Of a stretch of DNA of 64,000 nucleotides, positions 27,260-40,003 are shown piece by piece. Under the pieces are notes generated by a model. It saw only the letters and a list, made by a program, of their open reading frames with translations, did not search any database and was not told the DNA's origin. The stretch covers positions 1,044-65,043 of the forward strand of contig JAXKBK010000040.1 in NCBI GenBank assembly GCA_036553025.1, given 5' to 3'. Within the stretch, counting starts at the first letter, position 1, and the number at the start of each line of letters is the position of its first letter. The position numbers were made by a program, and so were the translations under genes. The DNA comes from Collinsella sp. GTDB lineage: Bacteria > Actinomycetota > Coriobacteriia > Coriobacteriales > Coriobacteriaceae.

Positions 27260-27823
27260 TTAAGGCTCTTTTTTGCTTTGCACGCCCTTGGCCCACTCGG
27301 CGCTGGCTCTCATGGCATTCTCGAGGGCCTCGCGCAGTTTTTGGTCTTCGATGGGCGCCACTTGGCGCTCAATCTCGGTGCGCTCGGCCTCACTTAGGTC
27401 GGCGTGCGGGGCCGGCGGGCGCTCGGTCGTCGCCGGGCGCAGGCGCTCCTTGGCGGCGGGCGGCGTGTGACCGGGCGCGGTGGTTTTGAACACCAGGCCG
27501 TCCACATGCGCACCGGCGCGCTCCATGCGCGCGCGAATGATCTCGCGCAACAGCGTCATTTCCTGCGTCCACGAGGGCGAATCGAGATATACCAGCAGCT
27601 CATTGGACTCGGGCAGGTAGCGCAGGCCCGTCACATGCCGCCCCTCGCGCGTGCCCGAGCACACCGCGTTCCACGCGCGATAGACCGCGCGCGACTCCTC
27701 GGCAGCCTCCATCTGCGCACGGCGCTCAGGTGTTGCAGCCGCCAGGATGCGCTGGCGCTCTGCGTTTAAAAACCCACTGAAGGCGACCGTTTCGCTCTCG
27801 CGCTCGTAATTAGCACGTCTCAC
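27260..27823 (-). CDS. DUF721 domain protein (DciA-type candidate helicase loader)
   Basis: It occupies the recF-gyrB slot. The sequence AVYRAWNAVCSGTREGRHVTGLRYLPESNELLVYLDSPSWTQEMTLLREII fits the DUF721 pattern. It overlaps the recF end by 14 nt. Confidence 0.7.
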   Translation of the reverse strand: MRRANYERESETVAFSGFLNAERQRILAAATPERRAQMEAAEESRAVYRAWNAVCSGTREGRHVTGLRYLPESNELLVYLDSPSWTQEMTLLREIIRARMERAGAHVDGLVFKTTAPGHTPPAAKERLRPATTERPPAPHADLSEAERTEIERQVAPIEDQKLREALENAMRASAEWAKGVQSKKEP

Positions 27824-28916
27824 CCATGCTCACCACCTTGGCTCGATCAAGCAGGTCATCGGTAAAGTACCCCAGGTTGGTCGTGGTTATGACCGTCTGG
27901 ATATCATCGCCGATCAGCCGCAGAAAAGCACCGCGGCGCTCGCCGTCGAGTTCGCTCATCACGTCGTCCAAAAGCAGCAGCGGGGCGGTGCCCAGGACAT
28001 CGCGAGCCACGGCCACCTCCGCCACCTTCCAGGCCAGAACCAACGTTCGCTGCTGACCTTGGCTGGCAAATGAGCGGGCGGAGCGGCCCGCCACGGCAAA
28101 CTCAATCTCATCGCGATGCGGTCCCACCAACGTCACGCCGCGGCGAATTTCCTCGTCGGCGTGCTCATCAAGGGCAGTCAGCATGCGCTCGTACGCCCAG
28201 CCCTTCAGCTCTTCGCGATCCTCGACCTGGGGCAAATCCCCCAGCGTGGACGTATAGGTCACGCTGGCAGCCTCGCCGGACGCCACTTGACCGTAGGCAG
28301 TGTGCACATGGCCCGCCAGCCGGTCGAGTAGGGCCAACCGGTGCACGAGCAGGGCCGAGCCCGCGCGGGCAATCGAATCGTTCCACGCGCCGAGCATCTC
28401 GCGGCAGCACCAGGTCTCCTTGAGCAGGGCGTTACGCTGGGTCACGCAGCGCCCATAGGTGCTCGCAAGATCGGCATAGCGTGCGCTCAGTTGCATGCCA
28501 AAGTCGTCGAGGGCGGCGCGGCGCACACTGGCGCCTCGCTTAACCATGTCCAGATGGTCGGGGCAAAACAGCACGCTCGGCAGAACCCCGCGCACACCGG
28601 CGGCAGAGCACCTCTTGCCGTTGCGGCTAAACGAGCGCTTACCGTCCTCCGCGCTCAATCCCATATCGAGCACGCGGCCGTCGCCCTCGAGCCTCAGCTC
28701 GACCTTGCACGAGCCCACGCCGTCATGGACGAGCTCGGCTGCGGTCGGATGCCTAAACGAGGCGCCGCTCGTCAGCAGCTGCAGCGCCTCTATGAGATTG
28801 GTCTTTCCCGCCGCGTTGGGTCCCGCAAGTATCGTCACGCCCTCGTCCAGGGCAAGGCGATAGCTATCGAAGCTGCGGTAGTGCGCGACGGAAAGATCGC
28901 GGGCGAACATGGTCAT
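27810..28916 (-). CDS. recF: DNA replication/repair protein RecF
   Basis: Walker A GPNAAGKTNLIEAL, signature SQGQQRTL and Walker B LLLLDDVMSELD. Confidence 0.95.
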   Translation of the reverse strand: MTMFARDLSVAHYRSFDSYRLALDEGVTILAGPNAAGKTNLIEALQLLTSGASFRHPTAAELVHDGVGSCKVELRLEGDGRVLDMGLSAEDGKRSFSRNGKRCSAAGVRGVLPSVLFCPDHLDMVKRGASVRRAALDDFGMQLSARYADLASTYGRCVTQRNALLKETWCCREMLGAWNDSIARAGSALLVHRLALLDRLAGHVHTAYGQVASGEAASVTYTSTLGDLPQVEDREELKGWAYERMLTALDEHADEEIRRGVTLVGPHRDEIEFAVAGRSARSFASQGQQRTLVLAWKVAEVAVARDVLGTAPLLLLDDVMSELDGERRGAFLRLIGDDIQTVITTTNLGYFTDDLLDRAKVVSMGETC

Positions 28917-28925
28917 GGCGCAGCG

Positions 28926-30029
28926 CTAGATGCGGACCGGCATAACCAGGTACAGGTAGTTGATCTTGTCGTAGGACTTGAAGATGCCCGCCTGCGAGTA
29001 GCTCTTGAGCTCCAGCGTGATCTCCTTCTCCTTGGACAGGGCATTGAGGCAGCCGAAGATGTAGTGGTAGTTGAAGGCGATGGTACCCGACTCGCCCTCG
29101 GCCTCGACATCGATCGCCTCCTGCGCAAGGTCCTGGTCATTGGAAATGGAGGACAGGCCCATCTGCCCGTTCTCGACATCGATCTCGAACTTGACAGCGG
29201 GGTTGGCGCTCGCGATAACGGCCACGCGCTTGAGGGCGGCGTTAAAGGCGGCGACGTCGATCTTGACGCTCGTCACGCACGAATCGGGGATGAGCTGCTT
29301 GTAGTTGGGGTACATGCCCTCGATACGGCGCGACACGTAGGTGGTGTTGCCGGCCTCGAAGACGACCTGGGTGTCGGTAGCCCCGATCATGATGGTCGCC
29401 TGGCTGGCCATGATGTTCAGCGCGTCGTTAAAGGCGTCGGCCGGAACGTTGAGCTCAAAGGAGCCCTCGAGGGTCGAGGTCTCGACCTGCGTATCGCACA
29501 CGGCCAAGCGGAAGGAATCGGTCGCCACCAGGCGCACGGTGTTGTTCTCGACCTTCATGTGCACGCCGCCCAGGATGGGGCGGGCCTTGTCGGTCGAGGT
29601 GACGCGCCACACGCGGCCGACCATCTCGGACAAGATATCGGTCGGCAGCTCCACGGCACTCTCGATGGCATAGGCCGGAAACTCGGGGAAGTCATTGGCA
29701 TCGAGCGTGTTCAGGCGGAAAGAGCTCTTCTCGCAACCAATCAGCACCTGGCGCTCGGACAGCTCAAAGGTGACCGGGGCATCGGGGAGGGTCTTAGTGA
29801 TATTGGAAAGCATCTTACAGGGGATAACCATCTCGCCCTCTTCTTCGACATGCGCCGCGATGCGGTGACGGATCGAGATGGTGTAGTTAGAGGTCTGGAA
29901 TTCCAAGATGCCGTCTTGCGCCTTGACGAGCACGCCCGACAGGATGGGAAGGGTGGATGCCGAAGCGACACCCTTCATTACGACGCCGATGGCTTGTGTA
30001 AGCGAGCTCTGGCTGACGGTGAACTTCAT
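28926..30029 (-). CDS. dnaN: DNA polymerase III beta sliding clamp
   Basis: 367 aa beginning MKFTVSQSSLTQAIGVV..LPILSGVL, with a three-domain clamp layout, in the position between dnaA and recF. Confidence 0.95.
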   Translation of the reverse strand: MKFTVSQSSLTQAIGVVMKGVASASTLPILSGVLVKAQDGILEFQTSNYTISIRHRIAAHVEEEGEMVIPCKMLSNITKTLPDAPVTFELSERQVLIGCEKSSFRLNTLDANDFPEFPAYAIESAVELPTDILSEMVGRVWRVTSTDKARPILGGVHMKVENNTVRLVATDSFRLAVCDTQVETSTLEGSFELNVPADAFNDALNIMASQATIMIGATDTQVVFEAGNTTYVSRRIEGMYPNYKQLIPDSCVTSVKIDVAAFNAALKRVAVIASANPAVKFEIDVENGQMGLSSISNDQDLAQEAIDVEAEGESGTIAFNYHYIFGCLNALSKEKEITLELKSYSQAGIFKSYDKINYLYLVMPVRI

Positions 30030-30274
30030 CTTTTAATACCTTTCTACTTTCTATAGATATAAATATCTTAATAATAGTAATAGCACTGACGAAACTGTTG
30101 ATTACTCCCAAAGACGCAGGTCAGACCCAGAAAGAGAATCGACAGCAACCTGTGTGCAACAGGGGTGGTTTTCCACGTTCAAAACCTGCGCAAAACTTTT
30201 CATCACCGCGGGTTGGGTTTTAGACACCTTATGCCCGTGGTTTCGACAAGTTTTCAACAGGTGTCTCTATTTCC
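30030..30274. other. oriC part 2: AT-rich unwinding-element candidate (30030..30087) plus DnaA-box-like 9-mers
   Basis: A very AT-rich stretch of about 58 nt (CTTTTAATACCTTTCTACTTTCTATAGATATAAATATCTTAATAATAGTAATAGCAC) in GC-rich DNA. The boxes are TTTTCCACG (30169..30177), GTTTCGACA (30240..30248) and TTTTCAACA (30251..30259). Confidence 0.6.
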
Positions 30275-31999
30275 CTACGAGCGCAGTGTAATTTTATCGC
30301 GCAGCGACTTGAGGTCTTCGGTGACGGTGCGGTCTTCCTGGATCATCTTCTGGACCTTTTTGTAGCTCGTGCTGACGGTCGAGTGGTTGCGGTTGCCAAA
30401 TTCGGCGCCCACCGCCGTGGTCGTCATCTCGCACATCTCGATGGCCAGGTAGATAGCGATATGGCGTGCTTTGGCGATATTGGCGTTGCGACGCGGGCCG
30501 ATGAGCTCCTCGTGCGTCACGCCGTACTGCTCTTCGATGACGGACTGAACCGTCTGGACGTTGATCTTTTTGGCCGATGTGTCGAAGTACTGGCTGGCGA
30601 TGGCGTCGATATCGTCAAAGGTGAGCTCCCCGCCCTCGCGCTCGCGGTCCCCCGCCTCGCCGGCACAGCGCTCGCAGAAGCTCTCGAGTTCGCGGATGTT
30701 GGTGCCCGAGACCTCGGCCATGTGTTTAAAGTGCTCGTCGGTCAGGTGCCCGCCGTCGCCCCCATAGGCCGCCAGCAGCGAGTCGTCGCCTGCCTCGGGA
30801 GCGGCGACGATGGTGTTCTCGTAATAGCGCTGCAAGATCTTGTATTTCATCTCGTAGCTGGGCTCTGCGACCAGGCAGAGCATACCGGCGTTAAAGCGGC
30901 TGGTCAGGCGTTCGTCCATGCTCAGGTCCTTGGGGGCGCGGTCTGCCGCGATGACGACCTTCTTGTTGTTGCGGATGAACTCGTCCATGAGCTGGAAAAA
31001 GTAGTCCACGCTCGCGCGCTTGCCGATGATGTTTTGGATGTCATCGATGATGAGCACGTCCACACCGTGGTACGCCTGCATGATGGGGGCGTTGCTCTTC
31101 TTTTGGCGGTCGAACTCGGTCATCAGGTCGTCCAGATATGCCTGGGAGTTGGCATACTTGACCTTGATCTCGGGCGACTTCTCGGCGAGCTCGTTTTTGA
31201 TGGCAAGCAGCAGGTGCGTCTTGCCCAGGCCCGATTTGCCGTAGATGAACAGTGATGTGCACGTGCCGCGCTCGTCCGCGAGGGCGGCAAACTTGAGTGC
31301 CGAGCGATAGGCATGGCTGTTCTCGGGGCCGTAGACAAAGTTCTCAAAGGTAAATTTTGAGTTCGCGGCGAGCGGGGCTCCATCCATATTCTGCTCGGCC
31401 GGCACGGTCGGTGCTGGCATGGATGAGGCGGGGGTCGCAGCTTGCGTGGATTTAGTCGGCGCTCCGCCCTTCATCTGGTTCATCATGCGACGAAAATCAT
31501 CGGCCGAGAGCGTGTTCTTGATTGCAATGCCCGAATCCGCGCCCGCCGCTGCGTCGTGAGCGATGGGCATGTGCGTGACGGGTGCGTTCGTTGACGTCGC
31601 CGCCGCGGCCGGCAACGGTGCCATGGTTTCACGGGAAACATCGCTGCGCTGGTGCTCGATTGTCGGCACGTCGCCTGCGGAGGCCGGCGCCGCCGGGGAA
31701 GCAGCGGGAGCCGTGGTCGGCGCCGTCGCGGCAGCGGATTCCGTCGCGGCGCCTTGCGGTGCCACGATGTCGAGTGCAATCGGTGCAAAGGCGATTTCTT
31801 CCAGATAGGCCTCAATAGTCGGCTGATGCTTTTTGAGCTGCGCGATGGCAAAGCGCGAGGGGGCCTCGATCGTGAGCGTATCTTCGGTCAGGCTTATGGC
31901 GCGCGATTGCCCCAGCATGTTGATGAGGCGTGCATCTTGGCCGTCGCGCTGGCAAAAGGCGATGGCATCCCCCAGGATGATGCTTGCTTCCTCGTCCAC
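30275..31999 (-). CDS. dnaA: chromosomal replication initiator DnaA
   Basis: AAA+ Walker A IYGKSGLGKTHLL, DVLIIDDIQ, and C-terminal DNA-binding helices (IAKARHIAIYL..GAEFGNRNHSTV). Domain II is a long A/P-rich linker. Confidence 0.95.
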   Translation of the reverse strand: MDEEASIILGDAIAFCQRDGQDARLINMLGQSRAISLTEDTLTIEAPSRFAIAQLKKHQPTIEAYLEEIAFAPIALDIVAPQGAATESAAATAPTTAPAASPAAPASAGDVPTIEHQRSDVSRETMAPLPAAAATSTNAPVTHMPIAHDAAAGADSGIAIKNTLSADDFRRMMNQMKGGAPTKSTQAATPASSMPAPTVPAEQNMDGAPLAANSKFTFENFVYGPENSHAYRSALKFAALADERGTCTSLFIYGKSGLGKTHLLLAIKNELAEKSPEIKVKYANSQAYLDDLMTEFDRQKKSNAPIMQAYHGVDVLIIDDIQNIIGKRASVDYFFQLMDEFIRNNKKVVIAADRAPKDLSMDERLTSRFNAGMLCLVAEPSYEMKYKILQRYYENTIVAAPEAGDDSLLAAYGGDGGHLTDEHFKHMAEVSGTNIRELESFCERCAGEAGDREREGGELTFDDIDAIASQYFDTSAKKINVQTVQSVIEEQYGVTHEELIGPRRNANIAKARHIAIYLAIEMCEMTTTAVGAEFGNRNHSTVSTSYKKVQKMIQEDRTVTEDLKSLRDKITLRS

Positions 32000-32014
32000 T
32001 GTCTCTCCCGTTCT

Positions 32015-33367
32015 TTAGCTCTGAGCTCGCACGCGAGCGGCGCCGAGTTCGGTCAGATGGTATTTCTGGCCATGCTTGATGACCAAGCCGGCCTGCGCCA
32101 AGTCATTGAGCGTGCGTGACCAAGTGGGGGCCGAGTTTCCAAACGCCCTCGCCAGATCGGTTGCACCGCACGCTTGATTTTGCGCCAGATAGCCCAGCGC
32201 GGCGTTGCCGCGGTCGCTTACGAACACGTCCGGTTGTGGCTGCGCATACTGATTTGCTGCATTAGGATACATCATTTGAGCTGCTGGTTGTTGAGAACTC
32301 TGCATCGGTGGCATTTGCTGTTGAAAACTTTGAGGCCACTGTTGGTAAGGCTGCGGAGGCATCTGCTGGGCCCAAGGGCTGTACTGCTGCTGCGGCATCT
32401 GCTGGTACGGCTGCTGATATCCCTGCTGGTACTGCTGCGGGAACTGCTGGCCATACCCCAGTGGCGGCATCTGCTGATATGGATATCCCTGTTGGTACGG
32501 CTGATAGCCCATTTGCTGGCCACCCGGTGCCCCCGTCGCCTGCTGCATTGCTGCTGCATCCTGATCCGCCAGCGGCACGGTCTCTGGCATGTTTGGCGGC
32601 ATCGACATCGATGTCGCCTGGGGCTCTTGTGTAGGAAGCATTCCGGGATGCTGCATCTGCCCCACGGGGGGCTGCATCTGCTGCGTTGCCATGGGCTGCT
32701 GCGCAAAAGCTCCCGGCAGGGGATATGTGGGCTGCTCCGTCTCGGGCCGCACGGCAGCACCGCGTCCGCCGGCGCGCTCGATTTCCTGCACGCGTTTAGG
32801 GTCCAGGCTTACCGTAACCACGGTGCCGTTGCCCATGTTGTCCTCGATGGATACGGCACCGCCGGCGTTTTCCAAATACTCCTGCACCATGGGAAACCCT
32901 GCTCCGGTTCCACGGATATAGCGCTTCATCTTGCTGTTTGCGCTGGTAACGCCAAAGTCGAAAGCACGTTCCTTGTCGTCGATGCCGGGTCCTTGGTCAG
33001 CAAAGCGGATGGTGTCTCCGCCGTCCAGAATCGAGATGATGGGCTCGGCAAAGTGTGCGTGGATAAAGTTTTCGACAATCTCGCGGATGACCATGAGCGA
33101 GATATGGCCACCTTGTTCTTTCATGCACTGGTAGACGGTGTTGGTCGTCTCTTCCAAATACGTGCGGACATCTTGCGGATCAATGACGATCACCCGCGGT
33201 GTCGACAGCATGTCGTCATAGACGGCGATGCGCGCGGCGTACATGGCTTTTGGCGCCTGCGTGGTCGTCTGCTCGCCTTCCGCACGCTCTTCGCGCACGC
33301 CGGTGATGTGCTCGTTGTCGGGTGCCGGGTCTCCGGAATCGACCATGGCGTAAAAGTCGTCAGACAT
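32015..33367 (-). CDS. GHKL-type ATPase domain / Q,P,Y-rich low-complexity region / C-terminal winged-helix protein, immediately upstream of dnaA
   Basis: HATPase_c-like motifs are IREIVENFIHAH (N box), FADQGPGI (G1) and RGTGAGFPMV..GNGTVVTVSL (G2). About 170 aa of Q/P/Y/M-rich sequence follows. The C-terminal segment ALGYLAQNQACGATDLARAFGNSAPTWSRTLNDLAQAGLVIKHGQKYHLT resembles a MarR/ArsR-type wHTH. The stop lies 15 nt before the dnaA start. Confidence 0.7.
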   Translation of the reverse strand: MSDDFYAMVDSGDPAPDNEHITGVREERAEGEQTTTQAPKAMYAARIAVYDDMLSTPRVIVIDPQDVRTYLEETTNTVYQCMKEQGGHISLMVIREIVENFIHAHFAEPIISILDGGDTIRFADQGPGIDDKERAFDFGVTSANSKMKRYIRGTGAGFPMVQEYLENAGGAVSIEDNMGNGTVVTVSLDPKRVQEIERAGGRGAAVRPETEQPTYPLPGAFAQQPMATQQMQPPVGQMQHPGMLPTQEPQATSMSMPPNMPETVPLADQDAAAMQQATGAPGGQQMGYQPYQQGYPYQQMPPLGYGQQFPQQYQQGYQQPYQQMPQQQYSPWAQQMPPQPYQQWPQSFQQQMPPMQSSQQPAAQMMYPNAANQYAQPQPDVFVSDRGNAALGYLAQNQACGATDLARAFGNSAPTWSRTLNDLAQAGLVIKHGQKYHLTELGAARVRAQS

Positions 33368-33374
33368 GCCGCTC

Positions 33375-33530
33375 GCAATCTTTCAAAAGGTTTCGAACAA
33401 ATAGTAGCTCACCGTGCAACGTTTCTCATCTTTCGACAACTTTTCAAAACTTGTTGAAAACTTTGGAAAACGGGCGAAAAGTTCTCAACATTGCCAACAT
33501 GACCTGTTGAAAACTCGATGAAATATCGTG
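33375..33530. other. oriC part 1: cluster of DnaA-box-like 9-mers between the GHKL gene and rpmH
   Basis: TGTTGAAAA (33452..33460 and 33505..33513, the reverse complement of TTTTCAACA), TTCTCAACA (33482..33490), CTTTCGACA (33430..33438) and TTTGGAAAA (33462..33470), plus further TTTC(A/G)A(A/C)A variants. Confidence 0.55.
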
Positions 33531-33610
33531 AAAGGTTGCCATGAGGCGCAAATTTCGGTTGTGCTTATGGGGGAACCGTGTGAACTGCGCAACCTTTTAC
33601 CTTTGATTTC

Positions 33611-33640
33611 TTGACATTTGAACATTGATTTCCCTACAAT
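33611..33640 (+). promoter_or_regulatory. putative rpmH operon promoter
   Basis: TTGACA (33611..33616), an 18-nt spacer, then TACAAT (33635..33640). Confidence 0.55.
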
Positions 33641-33712
33641 CTTCAAGCTCACGTGTCTATATCTGCGTCCGCGTCCCCGCGGACACTCGAAATGCAGCAG
33701 GAGGAACTTAAG

Positions 33713-33847
33713 ATGAAGCGTACGTATCAGCCTAATAAGCGTAAGCGTGCCAAGACCCATGGCTTCCGTGCCCGTATGGCCACTAAGGGTGGTCGTGCCG
33801 TGCTCGCCCGTCGTCGCGCCAAGGGCCGCAAGCGTCTCACTGTCTAG
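33713..33847 (+). CDS. rpmH: 50S ribosomal protein L34
   Basis: [44 protein letters not shown], with the ATG preceded by GCAGGAGGAACTTAAG. Confidence 0.97.
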
Positions 33848-35937: not shown

Positions 35938-36675
35938 TTGTTAGTACTTACTGATCAGCAAGCTGACGAGATGTTGAGTCGTCTAGCTTTCTATTGCAAA
36001 GAGTATTCCTTGAGCGTAACTGATGTTGAGCTGAGGAAATGTATTCAGCATTTGGATTTGGTTCTAGAAACAAATAAGACAACCAATCTCACCCGTATTC
36101 TTAACGTAGAAGATGCTGCAGTACTTCATATCCTCGACTCACTTGTTTTGCTCCCCTATATCAACAAGGCTCCTGAGGGAGCTTTGCTCGATATGGGAAC
36201 AGGTGCGGGCTTCCCTGGTATTCCATTAACCATAACCACGCATCGTAAAGCTACTTATATTGACTCTGTTGGCAAGAAGGTTGATGCGGTAAATTCCTTT
36301 GTCCATGCTCTTGGATTGAAACATGCCCATGCGGTTCATGATCGTCTTGAAGAATATGCTCGGAGCCATAAGAAGCAGTTCTCTGTTGTAACCGCCCGCG
36401 CACTGGCCCCTCTACCGATTCTTGTTGAGTATGCGGCTCCGTATCTGAAGGATGGAGGGCTATTTGTTATAACCAAGGGCAATCCTTCGGATGAGGAGCT
36501 TGCTTCCGGCATGTCAGCAGCTAAGATTTGCGGCTTCACTTTGCTTCTGAATGACGCAATTGATTTGCCTGAAGGCTTGGGTCACAGGGAGTTCATTGTT
36601 CTTAAGAAGAGTCATCCAGCATCTGTCTCATTGCCTCGTGCAAATGGCGTGGCAAAGAAGAATCCGCTTGCCTAG
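35938..36675 (+). CDS. rsmG: 16S rRNA (guanine527-N7)-methyltransferase RsmG
   Basis: SAM motif LLDMGTGAGFPGIPL, then VTARALA. I prefer TTG 35938 after AAGGAG. The longest ORF start (35890) lies inside the jag terminator. Confidence 0.85.
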   Translation: MLVLTDQQADEMLSRLAFYCKEYSLSVTDVELRKCIQHLDLVLETNKTTNLTRILNVEDAAVLHILDSLVLLPYINKAPEGALLDMGTGAGFPGIPLTITTHRKATYIDSVGKKVDAVNSFVHALGLKHAHAVHDRLEEYARSHKKQFSVVTARALAPLPILVEYAAPYLKDGGLFVITKGNPSDEELASGMSAAKICGFTLLLNDAIDLPEGLGHREFIVLKKSHPASVSLPRANGVAKKNPLA

Positions 36676-36676
36676 A

Positions 36677-36692
36677 TGTTTCACGTGAAACA
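36677..36692. promoter_or_regulatory. parS site 1 (TGTTTCACGTGAAACA)
   Basis: Perfect 16-bp palindrome matching the conserved ParB-binding consensus. Confidence 0.9.
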
Positions 36693-36715
36693 TAATGGAT
36701 ACTAACAACTTGCAG

Positions 36716-36731
36716 TGTTTCACGTGAAACA
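36716..36731. promoter_or_regulatory. parS site 2 (TGTTTCACGTGAAACA)
   Basis: Identical palindrome, 39 bp start-to-start from site 1. Confidence 0.9.
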
Positions 36732-36754
36732 TGGCGGTTGATATCGATTCGGAA

Positions 36755-36770
36755 TGTTTCACGTGAAACA
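36755..36770. promoter_or_regulatory. parS site 3 (TGTTTCACGTGAAACA)
   Basis: Identical palindrome, 39 bp from site 2 and 40 nt upstream of the parA start. Confidence 0.9.
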
Positions 36771-36809
36771 TCCTCCGTTTGACAGCTTTAATACACACCA
36801 GGAGGGGCC

Positions 36810-37610
36810 GTGGGATTTCGCGACGTTAAGCGTTCTAAGAGCGCAAAAGACACGCGTATCATTGCAATCATCAATCAAAAAGGCGGCGTCGGTAAGTCAA
36901 CGACGGCTGTAAACCTTGCAGCAGCACTGGGTGAGCAGGGTCGTAAGACACTGATTGTCGATTTTGATCCGCAGGGAAACAGCACCAGTGGATTCGGAAT
37001 TGAAAAAGAAGACCTTGATCACTGCATCTATGATGCATTGTTGAATGATGTGCCGGCAGAATCGCTTGTTCTTGATACAAATTGTAAAAAGGTATTCGTT
37101 ATTCCGGCTACAATTCAACTTGCAGGCGCGGAAATTGAGCTCGTAAGCGCAATTGCTCGTGAAACCCGCCTCAAAGATTTGCTTGAGCCGATTCAGGACG
37201 AGTTTGACTTTATTTTCATTGACTGTCCTCCTTCGCTCGGCCTGCTTACTATCAACGCTTTGACCGCAGCAGACAGCGTTTTGATTCCGATCCAGTGCGA
37301 ATATTACGCACTCGAGGGCGTTACGAAGCTGCTTGAGTCAATGAAGATGGTCAAATCACGGCTGAACAAGGGCTTAGACACCTATGGTGTGCTTATGACC
37401 ATGTATGACTCGCGTACTTCACTATCGAATCAGGTTGTTGAGGAGGTTCAATCGTACTTTGGTGATAAGGCGTTTAAGACGCTAATCCCCCGTACGGTTA
37501 AAATCTCCGAAGCTCCGTCTTTTGGAGAACCGGTAATTACCTATGCACCTCAAAATAAGGGTGCAAAAGCATATATGAACCTTGCAAAAGAGGTGATCAA
37601 GCGTGCCTAG
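36810..37610 (+). CDS. parA: chromosome partitioning ATPase ParA/Soj
   Basis: Deviant Walker A NQKGGVGKSTTAVNLA and FIFIDCPPSLG. The GTG start follows CAGGAGGGG. Confidence 0.95.
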   Translation: MGFRDVKRSKSAKDTRIIAIINQKGGVGKSTTAVNLAAALGEQGRKTLIVDFDPQGNSTSGFGIEKEDLDHCIYDALLNDVPAESLVLDTNCKKVFVIPATIQLAGAEIELVSAIARETRLKDLLEPIQDEFDFIFIDCPPSLGLLTINALTAADSVLIPIQCEYYALEGVTKLLESMKMVKSRLNKGLDTYGVLMTMYDSRTSLSNQVVEEVQSYFGDKAFKTLIPRTVKISEAPSFGEPVITYAPQNKGAKAYMNLAKEVIKRA

Positions 37611-38508
37611 TGTAAAGAAACGTGGCGGATTGGGACGTGGACTCAATGCTTTGGTCTCAGAGGCCGAGTATGAGACCGGCGGTTCGGCTGCATCGGCTTC
37701 AAATGCCGCATCTGAAACAAAACTACCTATTGAGGATATCGTTCCCAACCCTAATCAGCCGCGAATTCACTTTAACGAAACTGAACTTCGCGAGTTGAGC
37801 GAGTCAATCCAAGAACACGGCGTTTTGCAGCCGCTTTTGGTTCGCAAGCATGGAAACGGCTATGAGATCATCGCTGGTGAGCGTCGTTACCAGGCGTCAA
37901 AGCTTGCTGGCCTTGAAGAATTGCCAGTCATCATTAAAGAGGTAAATGATGAAGAGATGCTGGCTCTTGCTCTTATCGAAAACCTTCAGCGTTCTGATCT
38001 GAATCCCGTCGAAGAGGCTAAGGGCTATCGCCAACTCATTGATGCCAGCGGGATGACCCAGGAGGCATTGTCGAAGGCAGTAAGCAAGTCACGCTCTGCA
38101 ATTACAAACTCGCTGCGTCTTCTCGATCTCCCCGAAGTAGTTCAGCAGATGATTTTTGAGGGCAAACTTACTGCTGGTCATGCACGTGCGATTCTTGCAG
38201 TTCCCTATGAGGACGCGCGTATTCGACTTGCAGAGAAAGTTGTTACAGAGGGCCTTTCCGTAAGAGCGACAGAAAATCTTGCTCCGTTGTTTTCTGCCGG
38301 AGAGACACCTAAGACGCCGAGGCCTGCAACGCCTCAGTCTTTTAAAAAGGCTTCCCGCGTGCTTCGTCAGGTTTTTAATACCAACGTGCGTGTGAAGAGC
38401 TCGCGTGGAAAGAATAAGATTGAGATTGAGTTTAAAGACGAGGAAGAGCTCTCTCGTATTCTTGGCGAAATGATTCAGTTTGATCAAGGAGGCCAAGATG
38501 AGGAATAA
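37603..38508 (+). CDS. parB: chromosome partitioning protein ParB/Spo0J
   Basis: LPIEDIVPNPNQPR, GVLQPLLVR, IIAGERRYQA (arginine patch) and an HTH region. It overlaps the parA end by 8 nt. Confidence 0.95.
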   Translation: MPSVKKRGGLGRGLNALVSEAEYETGGSAASASNAASETKLPIEDIVPNPNQPRIHFNETELRELSESIQEHGVLQPLLVRKHGNGYEIIAGERRYQASKLAGLEELPVIIKEVNDEEMLALALIENLQRSDLNPVEEAKGYRQLIDASGMTQEALSKAVSKSRSAITNSLRLLDLPEVVQQMIFEGKLTAGHARAILAVPYEDARIRLAEKVVTEGLSVRATENLAPLFSAGETPKTPRPATPQSFKKASRVLRQVFNTNVRVKSSRGKNKIEIEFKDEEELSRILGEMIQFDQGGQDEE

Positions 38509-38752
38509 GATTTTAACAGCGATTGCATTGGTGACGACTGTCGCGGCTGGTGCCTTTGCTGGCTATAGGATCGCTACAGACGATGAACTTCGAGGTCGTT
38601 TGCTTCGTAGCGCGCAAGATATCGTCGATACTTCCAAAAAGAAAATGGATGTCATGACAGAAGATGTTGCCATGCGTACTGCTCAGGTAACGAAGAATCC
38701 CAAGATTAATCAAGGTTGGGTCAGCAACCAATGGGAAAATGTAGGCTATTAG
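38498..38752 (+). CDS. small membrane-anchored hypothetical protein
   Basis: MRNKILTAIALVTTVAAGAFAGY anchor. ATG 38498 follows AAGGAGG and overlaps the parB end. Confidence 0.5.
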   Translation: MRNKILTAIALVTTVAAGAFAGYRIATDDELRGRLLRSAQDIVDTSKKKMDVMTEDVAMRTAQVTKNPKINQGWVSNQWENVGY

Positions 38753-38780
38753 GTACCTAACAATTACTCAGCATATTTTG

Positions 38781-38822
38781 AGGGGTCCTTGTCTGATTCA
38801 TGAGACAAGGACCCCTTATTTT
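38781..38822 (+). terminator. rho-independent terminator after the parAB operon
   Basis: 14-bp stem AGGGGTCCTTGTCT/AGACAAGGACCCCT followed by TATTTT. Confidence 0.75.
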
Positions 38823-38916
38823 GGCCGTAAAAATGGGACAGGTAGCAGCTGATTCAAAATTAAGGTCAATAAATGAAACGACCCCGGTTGCATATTCTGT
38901 AACCGGGGTCGTTCGA

Positions 38917-38932
38917 TGTTTCACATGAAACG
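38917..38932. promoter_or_regulatory. degenerate parS-like site (TGTTTCACATGAAACG)
   Basis: 14/16 match to the three perfect sites. It lies between convergent genes, next to a hairpin at 38877..38912. Confidence 0.5.
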
Positions 38933-38950
38933 TTTTGGGATGCGACTCCC

Positions 38951-40003
38951 CTATGCGTTCTTCTGAACTTTGAAGCGCTGCTTCAGCTGTCCGCAAGCGG
39001 CGTCAATATCGTTACCACGGGAGTTACGAATCGTGGTCTCGATGCCACGGGACTCAAGACGACGCTGAAGATCCTCAACCTTATGAATCGGCGACGGCTT
39101 GAGCGGGCTACCCTCGATGTCGTTAAGCTGAATGAGGTTAACGTGGCACAGCGTTCCCTCGCAGAAGTCGCAGAGCGCCTGCATTTCGGGATTCGTATCG
39201 TTGACGCCTTCGATCATGGCATACTCATAGGTCGGGCGGCGGCCGGTCTTCTCGGTGTAGAGCTGAAGCGCTTCGTGAAGGCGAAGCAGCGTGTACTTCT
39301 TAACACCGGGCATGAGCTTATTGCGCGTCGACTGGATGGCGGAATGCAGGGAAACGGCAAGCGTGAACTGCTCGGGGATGTCGGCAAATTTGCGAATACC
39401 GGGAATAACGCCGCTGGTAGAGACGGTGAGGTGACGAGCGCCGATACCGATGCCATCGGGGTCGTTGAGGATTCGCAGCGCCTTGAGAACCTCGTCGTAG
39501 TTGGCAAACGGCTCGCCCTGGCCCATGAAGACAACGCTCGTGGCGCGCTCGCCAAAGTCGTTGGATACATGAAGTACCTGGTCGACGATCTCTTGAGCGG
39601 TCAGAGAGCGCTTGAGGCCGTTGAGACCGGTAGCGCAAAAGGCACAGCCCATGCCACAGCCTGCCTGGGTGGAAACGCAGACGGAAAGCTTGTTACGACG
39701 GGGCATGCCGACGGTCTCGACGGAAACGCCGTCGTGGTACTCGAGCAGATACTTGCGAGAGCCATCTTTGGAAACCTGCTTGGTGAGTTCAGTCGGCGTG
39801 TCAAAGGCAAAAGCCTCTTTAAGCTGCTCGCGGAAAGCCTTGGGAAGGTTGGTCATATCGTCAAACGAACAAACGTTCTTCTCAAAGACCCATTCGATGA
39901 GCTGCTTCGCGCGGAAGGCGGGCTGGCCAAGCTCGGCCACGAGCTCGCGAATATCGTTTTGGCTCAAGTCGCGAATGTCCTGAGATTTAGTCCTGGGATT
40001 CAT
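38951..40003 (-). CDS. rlmN: 23S rRNA/tRNA (adenine-C2)-methyltransferase RlmN (radical SAM)
   Basis: CVSTQAGCGMGCAFCATG radical-SAM cluster motif, GQGEPFANYD and a C-terminal AACGQLK. Confidence 0.9.
   Translation of the reverse strand: MNPRTKSQDIRDLSQNDIRELVAELGQPAFRAKQLIEWVFEKNVCSFDDMTNLPKAFREQLKEAFAFDTPTELTKQVSKDGSRKYLLEYHDGVSVETVGMPRRNKLSVCVSTQAGCGMGCAFCATGLNGLKRSLTAQEIVDQVLHVSNDFGERATSVVFMGQGEPFANYDEVLKALRILNDPDGIGIGARHLTVSTSGVIPGIRKFADIPEQFTLAVSLHSAIQSTRNKLMPGVKKYTLLRLHEALQLYTEKTGRRPTYEYAMIEGVNDTNPEMQALCDFCEGTLCHVNLIQLNDIEGSPLKPSPIHKVEDLQRRLESRGIETTIRNSRGNDIDAACGQLKQRFKVQKNA

Follow-up and report, generated by a model that had tools for sequence, protein, structure and literature searches.

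Gene X occupies positions 32015-33367 on the minus strand of a 64,000-nucleotide (nt) stretch of Collinsella sp. DNA (assembly GCA_036553025.1, contig JAXKBK010000040.1, positions 1,044 to 65,043), referred to here as the window, and ends just before dnaA, the gene for the replication initiator. Its 450-amino acid (aa) product joins an ATP-binding domain of the GHKL type to a C-terminal winged helix-turn-helix (wHTH) through a disordered linker. X is the Collinsella member of a family that is specific to the class Coriobacteriia and belongs to the chromosomal origin/dnaA module. Because it is class-wide, single-copy, under purifying selection and joined to dnaA even where the module is inverted, and because its domains fit such a role, X is a good candidate regulator. 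Some functional tie to DnaA or oriC is probable. The more specific reading favored here, in which X would bind DNA under the control of ATP and thereby regulate the dnaA operon or initiation itself, is evenly poised between right and wrong.

Linkage of X to dnaA across the Coriobacteriia

The position of X was compared across 92 loci, which were gathered by contig look-ups of divergent proteins and by a scan of metagenome contigs with an alignment of distant members, and were marked by tblastn for X, DnaA, DnaN, RecF, L34, RnpA and YidC. In 72 of the 72 informative divergent loci, X is followed directly by dnaA on its own strand, with neither an exception to this order nor a second copy of X among them; the remaining 20 contigs end too early for the order to be read. 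The synteny, for which the original prediction had proposed a survey of related genomes, is thus conserved across the Coriobacteriia. Homologues scattered at non-origin loci, a distribution that would speak against an origin role, were not seen. Collections of plasmids and phages likewise held no relatives of X but only generic histidine kinases at ~30% identity, and a mobile-element origin was rejected.

The flanks of the X-dnaA pair come in two arrangements. In type A, rpmH(-) lies upstream of X (61 loci) and dnaN(+) follows dnaA (49 loci). In type B, which includes Adlercreutzia-type contigs, dnaN(-) lies upstream of X (11 loci) and rpmH(+) follows dnaA (10 loci). An AT-rich element, described below, still lies downstream of dnaA in a type-B locus, and the inverted unit is therefore read as boxes, X, dnaA, and then boxes with the AT-rich element. 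Since the pair persists while both flanks change, the pairing appears functional and not merely an inherited order, which is the strongest argument for a role of X alongside dnaA. Adlercreutzia-type modules inverted relative to dnaN-recF and rpmH-rnpA-yidC were recorded at L089, L122, L124, L146-L149, L151, L153-L155, L159, L165 and L168.

These data bear on two other accounts of the locus. One holds that X is an ordinary transcription factor or signaling protein with targets unrelated to replication, and that its adjacency to dnaA is inherited gene order. Few parts of bacterial chromosomes keep their gene order as well as the oriC region, which holds functionally unrelated genes (rpmH, rnpA, yidC, jag and rsmG), and the support for a replication role of X is all contextual. 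Nevertheless, X and dnaA are kept together in the 11 loci with rearranged flanks, X sits inside a box-bounded module between two DnaA-box clusters, it is single-copy, found nowhere else and seen in one class only, and the box-flanked element described below is unique to the region upstream of it. Simple inheritance is, on these grounds, quite unlikely. The other account has X regulate the divergent rpmH-rnpA-yidC operon. While wHTH proteins often regulate a divergent neighbor, and rpmH is such a neighbor of X in the window and in 61 loci, where the two share an intergenic region with a strong rpmH promoter, in the 11 type-B loci X diverges from dnaN and rpmH lies downstream of dnaA. With dnaA as the sole constant neighbor, regulation of the rpmH operon is scarcely credible, and a regulator of the dnaA operon or of initiation remains the favored reading of the linkage.

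In the window, the locus of X is a classical origin region. X, dnaA, dnaN, recF, a DciA-family gene, gyrB and gyrA are encoded on the minus strand, and rpmH, rnpA, yidD, yidC, jag, rsmG, parA and parB diverge from X on the plus strand. The features considered here are as follows.

32015-33367, minus strand: gene X, GHKL-disordered linker-wHTH protein of 450 aa (open reading frame, ATG start)
32000-32014, minus strand: X-dnaA spacer of 15 nt with a Shine-Dalgarno-like GGGAGAG run (sequence)
30275-31999, minus strand: dnaA, 574 aa, GTG start (Bac_DnaA 1e-41, Bac_DnaA_C 8.5e-21)
28926-30029, minus strand: dnaN (three DNA_pol3_beta domains)
27810-28916, minus strand: recF
27260-27823, minus strand: DciA-family gene, after recF (PF05258, 27.9 bits against a cutoff of 24)
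33713-33847, plus strand: rpmH
36810-37610, plus strand: ParA/Soj gene (open reading frame list)
33368-33712: rpmH-X intergenic region, with a box cluster (about 33421-33514) and the rpmH promoter
30030-30274: dnaA-dnaN intergenic region, with variant DnaA boxes (~30180-30262) and an AT-rich stretch

The stop codon of X (TAA) is followed by the 15 nt agaacgggagagaca, which contain GGGAGAG, and then by the dnaA GTG at 31999. This start is credible because the DnaA N-terminus aligns with that of Coriobacterium glomerans DnaA from residue 1 (62% identity over the first 85 residues). The open reading frame, stop and spacer agree with the 450-aa frame that the original prediction had placed between rpmH and dnaA, 15 nt before the dnaA start, and so does the described neighborhood, with rpmH divergent and dnaA, dnaN and recF downstream on the minus strand. 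Judged by its length, the spacer is too short for a promoter or terminator, and a scan of the window found no terminator-like hairpin on the minus strand between the two genes. A consensus scan located the rpmH promoter (TTGACA-18-TACAAT at 33611-33640, plus strand) and no sigma-70 consensus promoter for X on the minus strand; an Rfam scan of the window returned tRNAs only, with no match near the X locus. Co-transcription of X with dnaA, which had been thought probable, is thus likely in the window but not universal, as spacers of 150-190 nt with boxes occur elsewhere. Gaps between X and dnaA measured from called genes are 15, 22, 56, 71, 79, 104, 124, 157 and 191 nt, and the median minimal gap over the 72 loci is ~65 nt. 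In one Atopobiaceae-type locus (L083, 6774-6842), a 29-nt inverted repeat, 86% complementary with an 11-nt loop, lies directly 3ʹ of the X stop, with three DnaA boxes between it and dnaA; it may be a terminator, an attenuator or a protein-binding palindrome. Elsewhere in the window, G+C content falls to ~0.47 over 36001-39000 (rsmG-parA-parB) against ~0.60 in flanking DNA, and similar dips occur at 14-15 kb (beside tRNAs) and at 55-57 kb.

Domain architecture and relatives of X

The X family was delimited by several searches. A word-indexed search with the N-terminal 206 residues returned 1227 relatives; those with a name, from Collinsella, Coriobacterium glomerans and Atopobiaceae, were all called "ATP-binding protein". 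When 1.84 billion representatives were searched exhaustively with a profile, 365 clusters formed at 50% identity passed E<=1e-30 and 526 passed E<=1e-10, with lengths of 230-708 aa. Divergent members, used as seeds, retrieved 2806 proteins at E<=1e-10, among them sequences from Eggerthellaceae and Raoultibacter, and cluster look-ups added Adlercreutzia, Berryella and "Coriobacteriales bacterium". Every named relative seen belongs to the class Coriobacteriia (Coriobacteriaceae, Atopobiaceae and Eggerthellaceae). Automatic names are contradictory across the family and include histidine kinase, anti-sigma regulatory factor, MarR regulator and ArsR regulator. Divergent members nonetheless keep one plan, in which an ARIA(V/L/I)YDD...PR(V/I) segment and HATPase_c are followed by a variable low-complexity linker and a wHTH. 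Some members (such as P0187 and P0253) have an extra N-terminal low-complexity extension of ~200 aa, for a total length of up to 708 aa, so disordered expansions occur in the family on both sides of the GHKL domain.

Within Collinsella, X is 97-100% identical across 80 loci and exactly 450 aa long in 79 of 81 alleles. The ratio of nonsynonymous to synonymous polymorphism (pN/pS) is 0.031 in the GHKL domain and 0.024 in the wHTH, against 0.21 in the linker and 0.19 in the N-terminal lead. By this pattern of variation, X is an expressed, constrained gene under purifying selection, in which the two folded domains are tightly constrained and the two spacers less so. Two assemblies labeled "Oscillospiraceae bacterium" and "Firmicutes bacterium AF25-13AC" (L014 and L061) carry a locus 98% identical to the Collinsella region, and these contigs are probably mis-binned or mislabeled.

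Four parts can be distinguished in the protein, all encoded on the minus strand; confidence in the structural models is given as the predicted local distance difference test (pLDDT).

33239-33367, minus strand: N-terminal lead, residues 1-43, with FYAMVD (residues 5-10, 33338-33355) and an acidic disordered spacer (alignment, pLDDT <50)
32753-33238, minus strand: histidine kinase-type GHKL (Bergerat) ATP-binding domain with a beta-beta-alpha N-terminal extension, residues 44-205 (HATPase_c, AlphaFold2, Foldseek)
32222-32752, minus strand: Q/P/A/M/G/Y-rich low-complexity disordered linker, residues 206-382, 177 aa (composition, pLDDT <50)
32018-32221, minus strand: C-terminal wHTH, residues 383-450, with a conserved GQK(R/Y)xLT wing (pLDDT >92, profile matches)

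By its sequence, X is a member of the GHKL/HATPase_c superfamily. Pfam HATPase_c (PF02518) matches residues 93-190 with a score of 43.3 bits (cutoff 26.4), and 112 of 112 relatives score above threshold. The motifs IREIVENFIHAH (94-105), DQGPGI (124-129), GTGAGF (153-158) and GNGTVVTV (179-186) contain the Bergerat residues of the N-box (E96, E99 and N100), G1 (D124, G126 and G128), G2 (G153, G155 and G157) and G3 (G181 and T182). These residues are invariant or at least 90% conserved in alignments of 14 and 112 relatives, and the ATP lid is likewise highly conserved (G139, S142, A143, K148, I151 and R152). The pocket therefore looks intact and of the histidine-kinase type, and these conserved motif residues would be expected to bind ATP-Mg2+. 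In an AlphaFold2 model built from a 14-sequence alignment, residues 45-205 form a confident alpha/beta domain of the Bergerat type with two strands and a helix ahead of it, residues 385-450 form three helices and a wing with pLDDT >92, and residues 1-40 and ~208-380 are disordered (pLDDT <50). The same elements appear, at a mean pLDDT of 82.5, in a second model, which was built from 112 sequences for a relative of 255 aa with a short linker. The original prediction had named a HATPase fold with these motifs, a low-complexity stretch of ~170 aa and a C-terminal MarR/ArsR-like wHTH, and had suggested profile searches and structure prediction as a check; the motifs are all present, the low-complexity stretch spans residues ~206-382, and both the GHKL and wHTH assignments hold.

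The wHTH assignment comes from the concordance of the model (helices 385-397, 402-409 and 413-425, strands 429-432 and 435-438) with matches that, for X of the window, all fall below cutoff: HVO_A0261_N, the best at 31.8 against a cutoff of 35, and MarR_2, HTH_IclR, HTH_Crp_2, HTH_20 and HTH_5 (ArsR). HTH_IclR, TrmB, MarR_2 and HTH_5 match 80-105 of the 112 relatives, and one relative (P0102) passes the cutoffs for HTH_IclR (23.2 against 22) and HTH_DeoR (22.1 against 21). The C-terminus is thus best described as a generic wHTH without a specific subfamily, which is predicted to bind DNA. PADLOC matches are to the wHTH only (Csa3/CasR-type), and a defense-system origin of X was rejected.

The closest matches of X in both sequence and fold are the CA domains of histidine kinases (HK853, CpxA, KinB and the P4 domain of CheA), with which it shares the N, G1, G2 and G3 boxes. 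In a Foldseek search of the PDB, these domains rank first (probability 1.00; HK853 and LOV-HK at E 1e-6 to 1e-4), with PDK and BCKDK also listed. Unlike histidine kinases, however, X has no DHp/HisKA domain, phospho-acceptor His box, sensor or transmembrane part, and unlike their CA domains, it has an extra beta-beta-alpha N-terminal extension and a fused wHTH. The lack of a kinase dimerization/His domain, noted at the outset from sequence, is evident by the absence of any HisKA/DHp match in Pfam at E<=1, and no conserved His precedes the N-box, the region being beta-beta-alpha. NCBIfam gives only weak partial matches to assorted histidine kinases, and no Response_reg gene lies near X in nine annotated contexts. 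X was ruled out as a two-component histidine kinase, since it has no DHp/HisKA match and no adjacent response regulator.

X also shares features with MutL. The N-box E-I-V-E-N of X resembles E-L-V-E-N of MutL, and a PDB profile search matches the MutL N-terminus to the N-box/G1 half of X (E 1.3e-3, motifs I-II); the G1-G3 half is matched by KinB (2e-4) and CheA. Unlike MutL, GyrB and MORC, X lacks the S5-fold transducer domain carrying the catalytic lysine, and its G2/G3 half matches histidine kinases and CheA. Pfam detects no DNA_mis_repair, DNA_gyraseB or MORC match in X, and the disordered linker begins directly after the GHKL domain. ATPases of the MutL/GyrB/MORC type need a transducer domain, and histidine kinases need a DHp His domain. 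Because both are missing, X is expected to be either a Ser/Thr-type GHKL kinase or an ATP-binding switch.

This leads to an alternative in which X is primarily a GHKL Ser/Thr-type protein kinase, like anti-sigma kinases, CapK or PDK/BCKDK, and phosphorylation is its key act, an account that overlaps with the favored reading. The substrate would be DnaA, another replisome or origin protein, or X itself, with the wHTH and long linker serving only to keep the kinase close to oriC. In X, neither a DHp/His nor a MutL/GyrB-type transducer domain accompanies the GHKL domain, and a stand-alone GHKL domain favors a kinase or ATP-binding switch over a hydrolyzing clamp. Moreover, the protein kinases PDK and BCKDK appear beside histidine kinases among the Foldseek matches, the ATP lid residues are highly conserved, and two members of the family are named "anti-sigma regulatory factor (Ser/Thr protein kinase)" in IMG. 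A precedent is CapK/CapS, in which a GHKL anti-sigma-type kinase and a STAS-wHTH repressor control an adjacent operon (Chambers et al. 2026, PMC13373217). This is the nearest working analogy to X, and a plausible one, in its combination of a GHKL kinase-type domain with a wHTH, although CapK and CapS are two proteins, built on STAS domains and encoded upstream of immune operons (PMC13373217). X, by contrast, is one polypeptide with no STAS match, its ATPase has no PADLOC match, and its downstream gene is always dnaA. Furthermore, no obvious conserved phospho-acceptor was identified, and no STAS antagonist, sigma-factor partner or other STAS-domain or sigma-factor gene is present in the annotated neighborhoods of X. 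SpoIIAB and RsbW are absent from the 60 PDB profile matches listed for X (E up to 1.5, in a search limited to E<=10) and from the Foldseek top 50, and none of the 112 members matches HATPase_c_2 (PF13581) at E<=0.01; an anti-sigma kinase of the SpoIIAB/RsbW type, suggested by the stand-alone domain and an N-x-I-H-A motif, was rejected. A role that is primarily that of a kinase is therefore unlikely, and the ATP-gated DNA-binding regulator remains preferred.

Only one solved structure, the uncharacterized DIP2311 (PDB 3lmm; AlbA_2-HATPase_c_4-wHTH), matches X over both the ATPase-like and wHTH parts. The Foldseek alignment (E 2e-6, query-normalized TM-score 0.48) covers 272 columns at 14% identity, with a root-mean-square deviation of 13 A over the full alignment. 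Unlike X, DIP2311 has an extra N-terminal AlbA_2/Schlafen-like domain and no known link to dnaA, and X has no Pfam match to HATPase_c_4.

The linker of X consists of Q (26%), P (18%), A (10%), M (8%), G (7%) and Y (7%), and the DNA encoding it contains weak 12/24-nt tandem repeats at 32381-32449. Across 286 full-length members, the shortest linker has 11 aa, the longest 361 aa and the median one 37 aa; linkers are shorter than 40 aa in 154 and at least 60 aa in 112, and these long linkers are rich in A, P, Q, G and Y. The original prediction had stressed the "prion-like" character of this stretch, but as it measures 11-40 aa in more than half of full-length relatives, it is a variable spacer that is not essential to the core function of the family. 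A scaffold hypothesis would give it a larger part, with the Q/P/Y-rich linker driving condensate or prion-like assembly at oriC and the GHKL domain acting as a MORC-like ATP-dependent clamp. Long Q/P/Y/A/G-rich linkers do recur in many lineages, and the GHKL protein MORC2 is reported to form condensates (PMC13189624). However, besides the many short linkers, the high proline content disfavors amyloid, X has no MORC-type S5/transducer or coiled-coil domain, and the pN/pS of the linker is typical of a spacer. An origin-organizing scaffold is accordingly very unlikely, and the linker does not alter the favored interpretation of X as a regulator.

The N-terminal lead contains an aromatic motif in which F5, Y6 and V9 are invariant in the 14-relative alignment (A2). 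A motif of the FYPFVD or FDYxFVD type is present in at least 118 of the 286 full-length relatives, with many near-variants besides. It reads FYPFVD in Coriobacteriales, FYAMVD in the window and FDYxFVD in Eggerthellaceae-type members, where it directly abuts the GHKL domain. The clamp-binding consensus is QL[SD]LF; FYPFVD does not resemble it, and no claim of beta-clamp binding is made.

DnaA boxes and a conserved element upstream of X

The DnaA boxes of this locus are of a variant type. In the window, the variant box TGTNGAAAA occurs six times against 1.2 expected, with five of the six within 30.2-33.5 kb; the classical E. coli box TTATCCACA and TTGTCCACA show no clustering. The locally repeated motif is TTTTCAACA-like and has the family-wide form TTTTCCAC, that is, (G)TTTTC[C/A]AC[A/T], which falls within the relaxed DnaA-box consensus TT[A/T]TNCACA and is found in 41 of 50 non-redundant regions upstream of X but in only 1 of 49 coding controls. 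The density of exact boxes is 4.2 per kb in the regions upstream of X and 3.5 per kb in those downstream of dnaA, compared with 0.21 per kb in coding DNA (~20-fold enrichment), and most lineages have no boxes between X and dnaA. The preferred box varies within the class: a comparison of the window intergenic regions, L081, L083 and L086 with L089 gave mostly TT[A/T]TCAACA (C6->A) in Coriobacteriales and TTTTCCAC or TTATCCAC in the Eggerthellaceae type.

An AT content of at least 80% over 40 nt is reached at a single place in the window, 30026-30085, adjoining dnaN. Here, TAC/TAT trinucleotide repeats (TAG/TAA on the other strand) directly follow a box in a DnaA-trio-like arrangement, and in four lineages a box is followed by a similar AT-rich element, "CTATTACTA(C/T)TA". 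Because the sole strongly AT-rich stretch lies in the dnaA-dnaN spacer and is conserved in other lineages, the DNA-unwinding site is most likely located there and not upstream of X, where the boxes would form a second cluster or operon control region. The DnaA-box cluster that the original prediction placed upstream of X is thus real, albeit made of a variant box, while the likely site of unwinding shifts to the far side of dnaA. To judge from the positions of the boxes, the origin looks bipartite, with X and dnaA between two box clusters; in Bacillus subtilis, dnaA likewise lies between box clusters.

Four box-like 9-mers also lie inside the X gene (32289-32327 and 33058-33077), including an exact TTTTCAACA at 32319-32327 and TGTCGAAAA at 33069-33077. 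These could be chance matches, embedded DnaA sites or promoter remnants for dnaA. DnaA itself has features of note in Collinsella: its domain II is an A/P/T-rich low-complexity region of ~120 aa, and its N-terminal domain falls below a Pfam DnaA_N match (E 0.3), whereas that of Eggerthellaceae DnaA matches. Expanded disordered linkers are therefore present in both X and DnaA of Collinsella.

Embedded in the cluster upstream of X is a conserved arrangement of boxes, 54-104 nt upstream of the X ATG in the window.

33421-33471: candidate control element, converging DnaA-box-like repeats (-> -> core <- <-) around a TTTTGAAAA core (sequence, 10-bp periodic repeat)

Two converging boxes with exactly 16 nt between their 8-mer cores (15 nt in Coriobacteriales) are present in 29 of 51 non-redundant regions, and no other spacing or orientation is comparably enriched. 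Within 618 kb of related loci, all 63 instances of the converging-box element lie upstream of X (recorded among loci L089-L170). The consensus, G-TTTTCCAC-a-tTTt-c-TGAATA-aAa-t-GTtGAaAAC-t..GAAAAc, includes an asymmetric TGAATA-like core that is 80-100% conserved and keeps a constant orientation relative to X, type-B loci included. Extra half-boxes at ~10-11-nt spacing flank the element on both sides, and a de novo search for enriched 8-mers gave only the embedded TGAATA core as a motif independent of DnaA boxes. The core could be either a promoter element or the operator of the X winged helix.

A candidate regulator of dnaA expression or of initiation

The features described above can be combined into a mechanism. 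X would be made from the same transcription unit as DnaA, with translation probably coupled in the window given the 15-nt gap. Its winged helix would bind the control region upstream of the X-dnaA pair, for which the best candidate target is the core flanked by converging boxes. The ATP-binding domain would switch state with ATP, either altering the self-association of X or phosphorylating X itself or a partner. As a result, transcription of the dnaA operon, access of DnaA to its boxes, or both would be tuned, and with them the frequency of initiation. A stronger version, which is doubtful, makes X a GHKL kinase or ATP switch, encoded within the oriC-dnaA module, that would occupy the box-flanked core and act on DnaA directly by phosphorylating or sequestering it.

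Control of DnaA differs greatly between bacterial lineages, and some lineage-specific DnaA/oriC regulators are encoded in or near the origin region. X resembles YabA, SirA, Soj, Hda, DiaA, HobA, SeqA, CtrA, MtrA and Spo0A in its proposed accessory role within one lineage but is unrelated to all of them in sequence and domains. No known accessory family (YabA, Hda, SeqA, DiaA, HobA, SirA, Soj or DciA) is among the Pfam and NCBIfam matches of X, and a replacement for the DciA helicase loader was ruled out because a separate DciA-family gene is present at 27260-27823. The early claim that X is none of the characterized origin factors is consistent with these results, as Pfam, NCBIfam and PADLOC return only generic domain matches. 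The strict place that X holds within the dnaA module of an entire class is unusual, and none of the regulators named above is known to use a GHKL ATP-binding domain.

Several points weigh against a regulatory role of this kind. The support for X as a regulator is purely genomic, with function read from gene context, and conserved gene order can persist through operon inertia without a functional link. The census of genomes is also incomplete, since the species-genome scan gave Collinsella only (GTDB splits this genus finely) and no distant synteny. In some relatives (Atopobiaceae-type), the 150-190-nt spacers between X and dnaA carry DnaA boxes, and because boxes and a hairpin can lie between the two genes, these would be separately expressible in some lineages. 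The recognition helix differs between the two orders (SQxTWSRELxxLE compared with PQSSTxxTLxKLEE), and a single conserved operator is therefore not guaranteed. Additionally, the core could be the -10 or -35 element of a promoter with DnaA boxes on either side, without any role for X. Full-text literature searches found no publications on the X family.

What is new about X is that a protein with this domain architecture would serve as a lineage-specific factor linked to the origin, a new job for the GHKL fold. If the stronger version, with direct action on DnaA, is correct, X would be the founding member of a new class of replication-initiation controllers and the first GHKL-based regulator of bacterial DnaA, and initiation in Coriobacteriia would be coupled to the ATP or energy state of the cell. 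The converging-box element upstream of X is an immediate target for binding work. Abundant gut bacteria of medical relevance, Collinsella and Eggerthella lenta among them, belong to the understudied Coriobacteriia, a class for which we know of no description of DnaA control, and X is a concrete, testable candidate for the missing control of initiation in this class.

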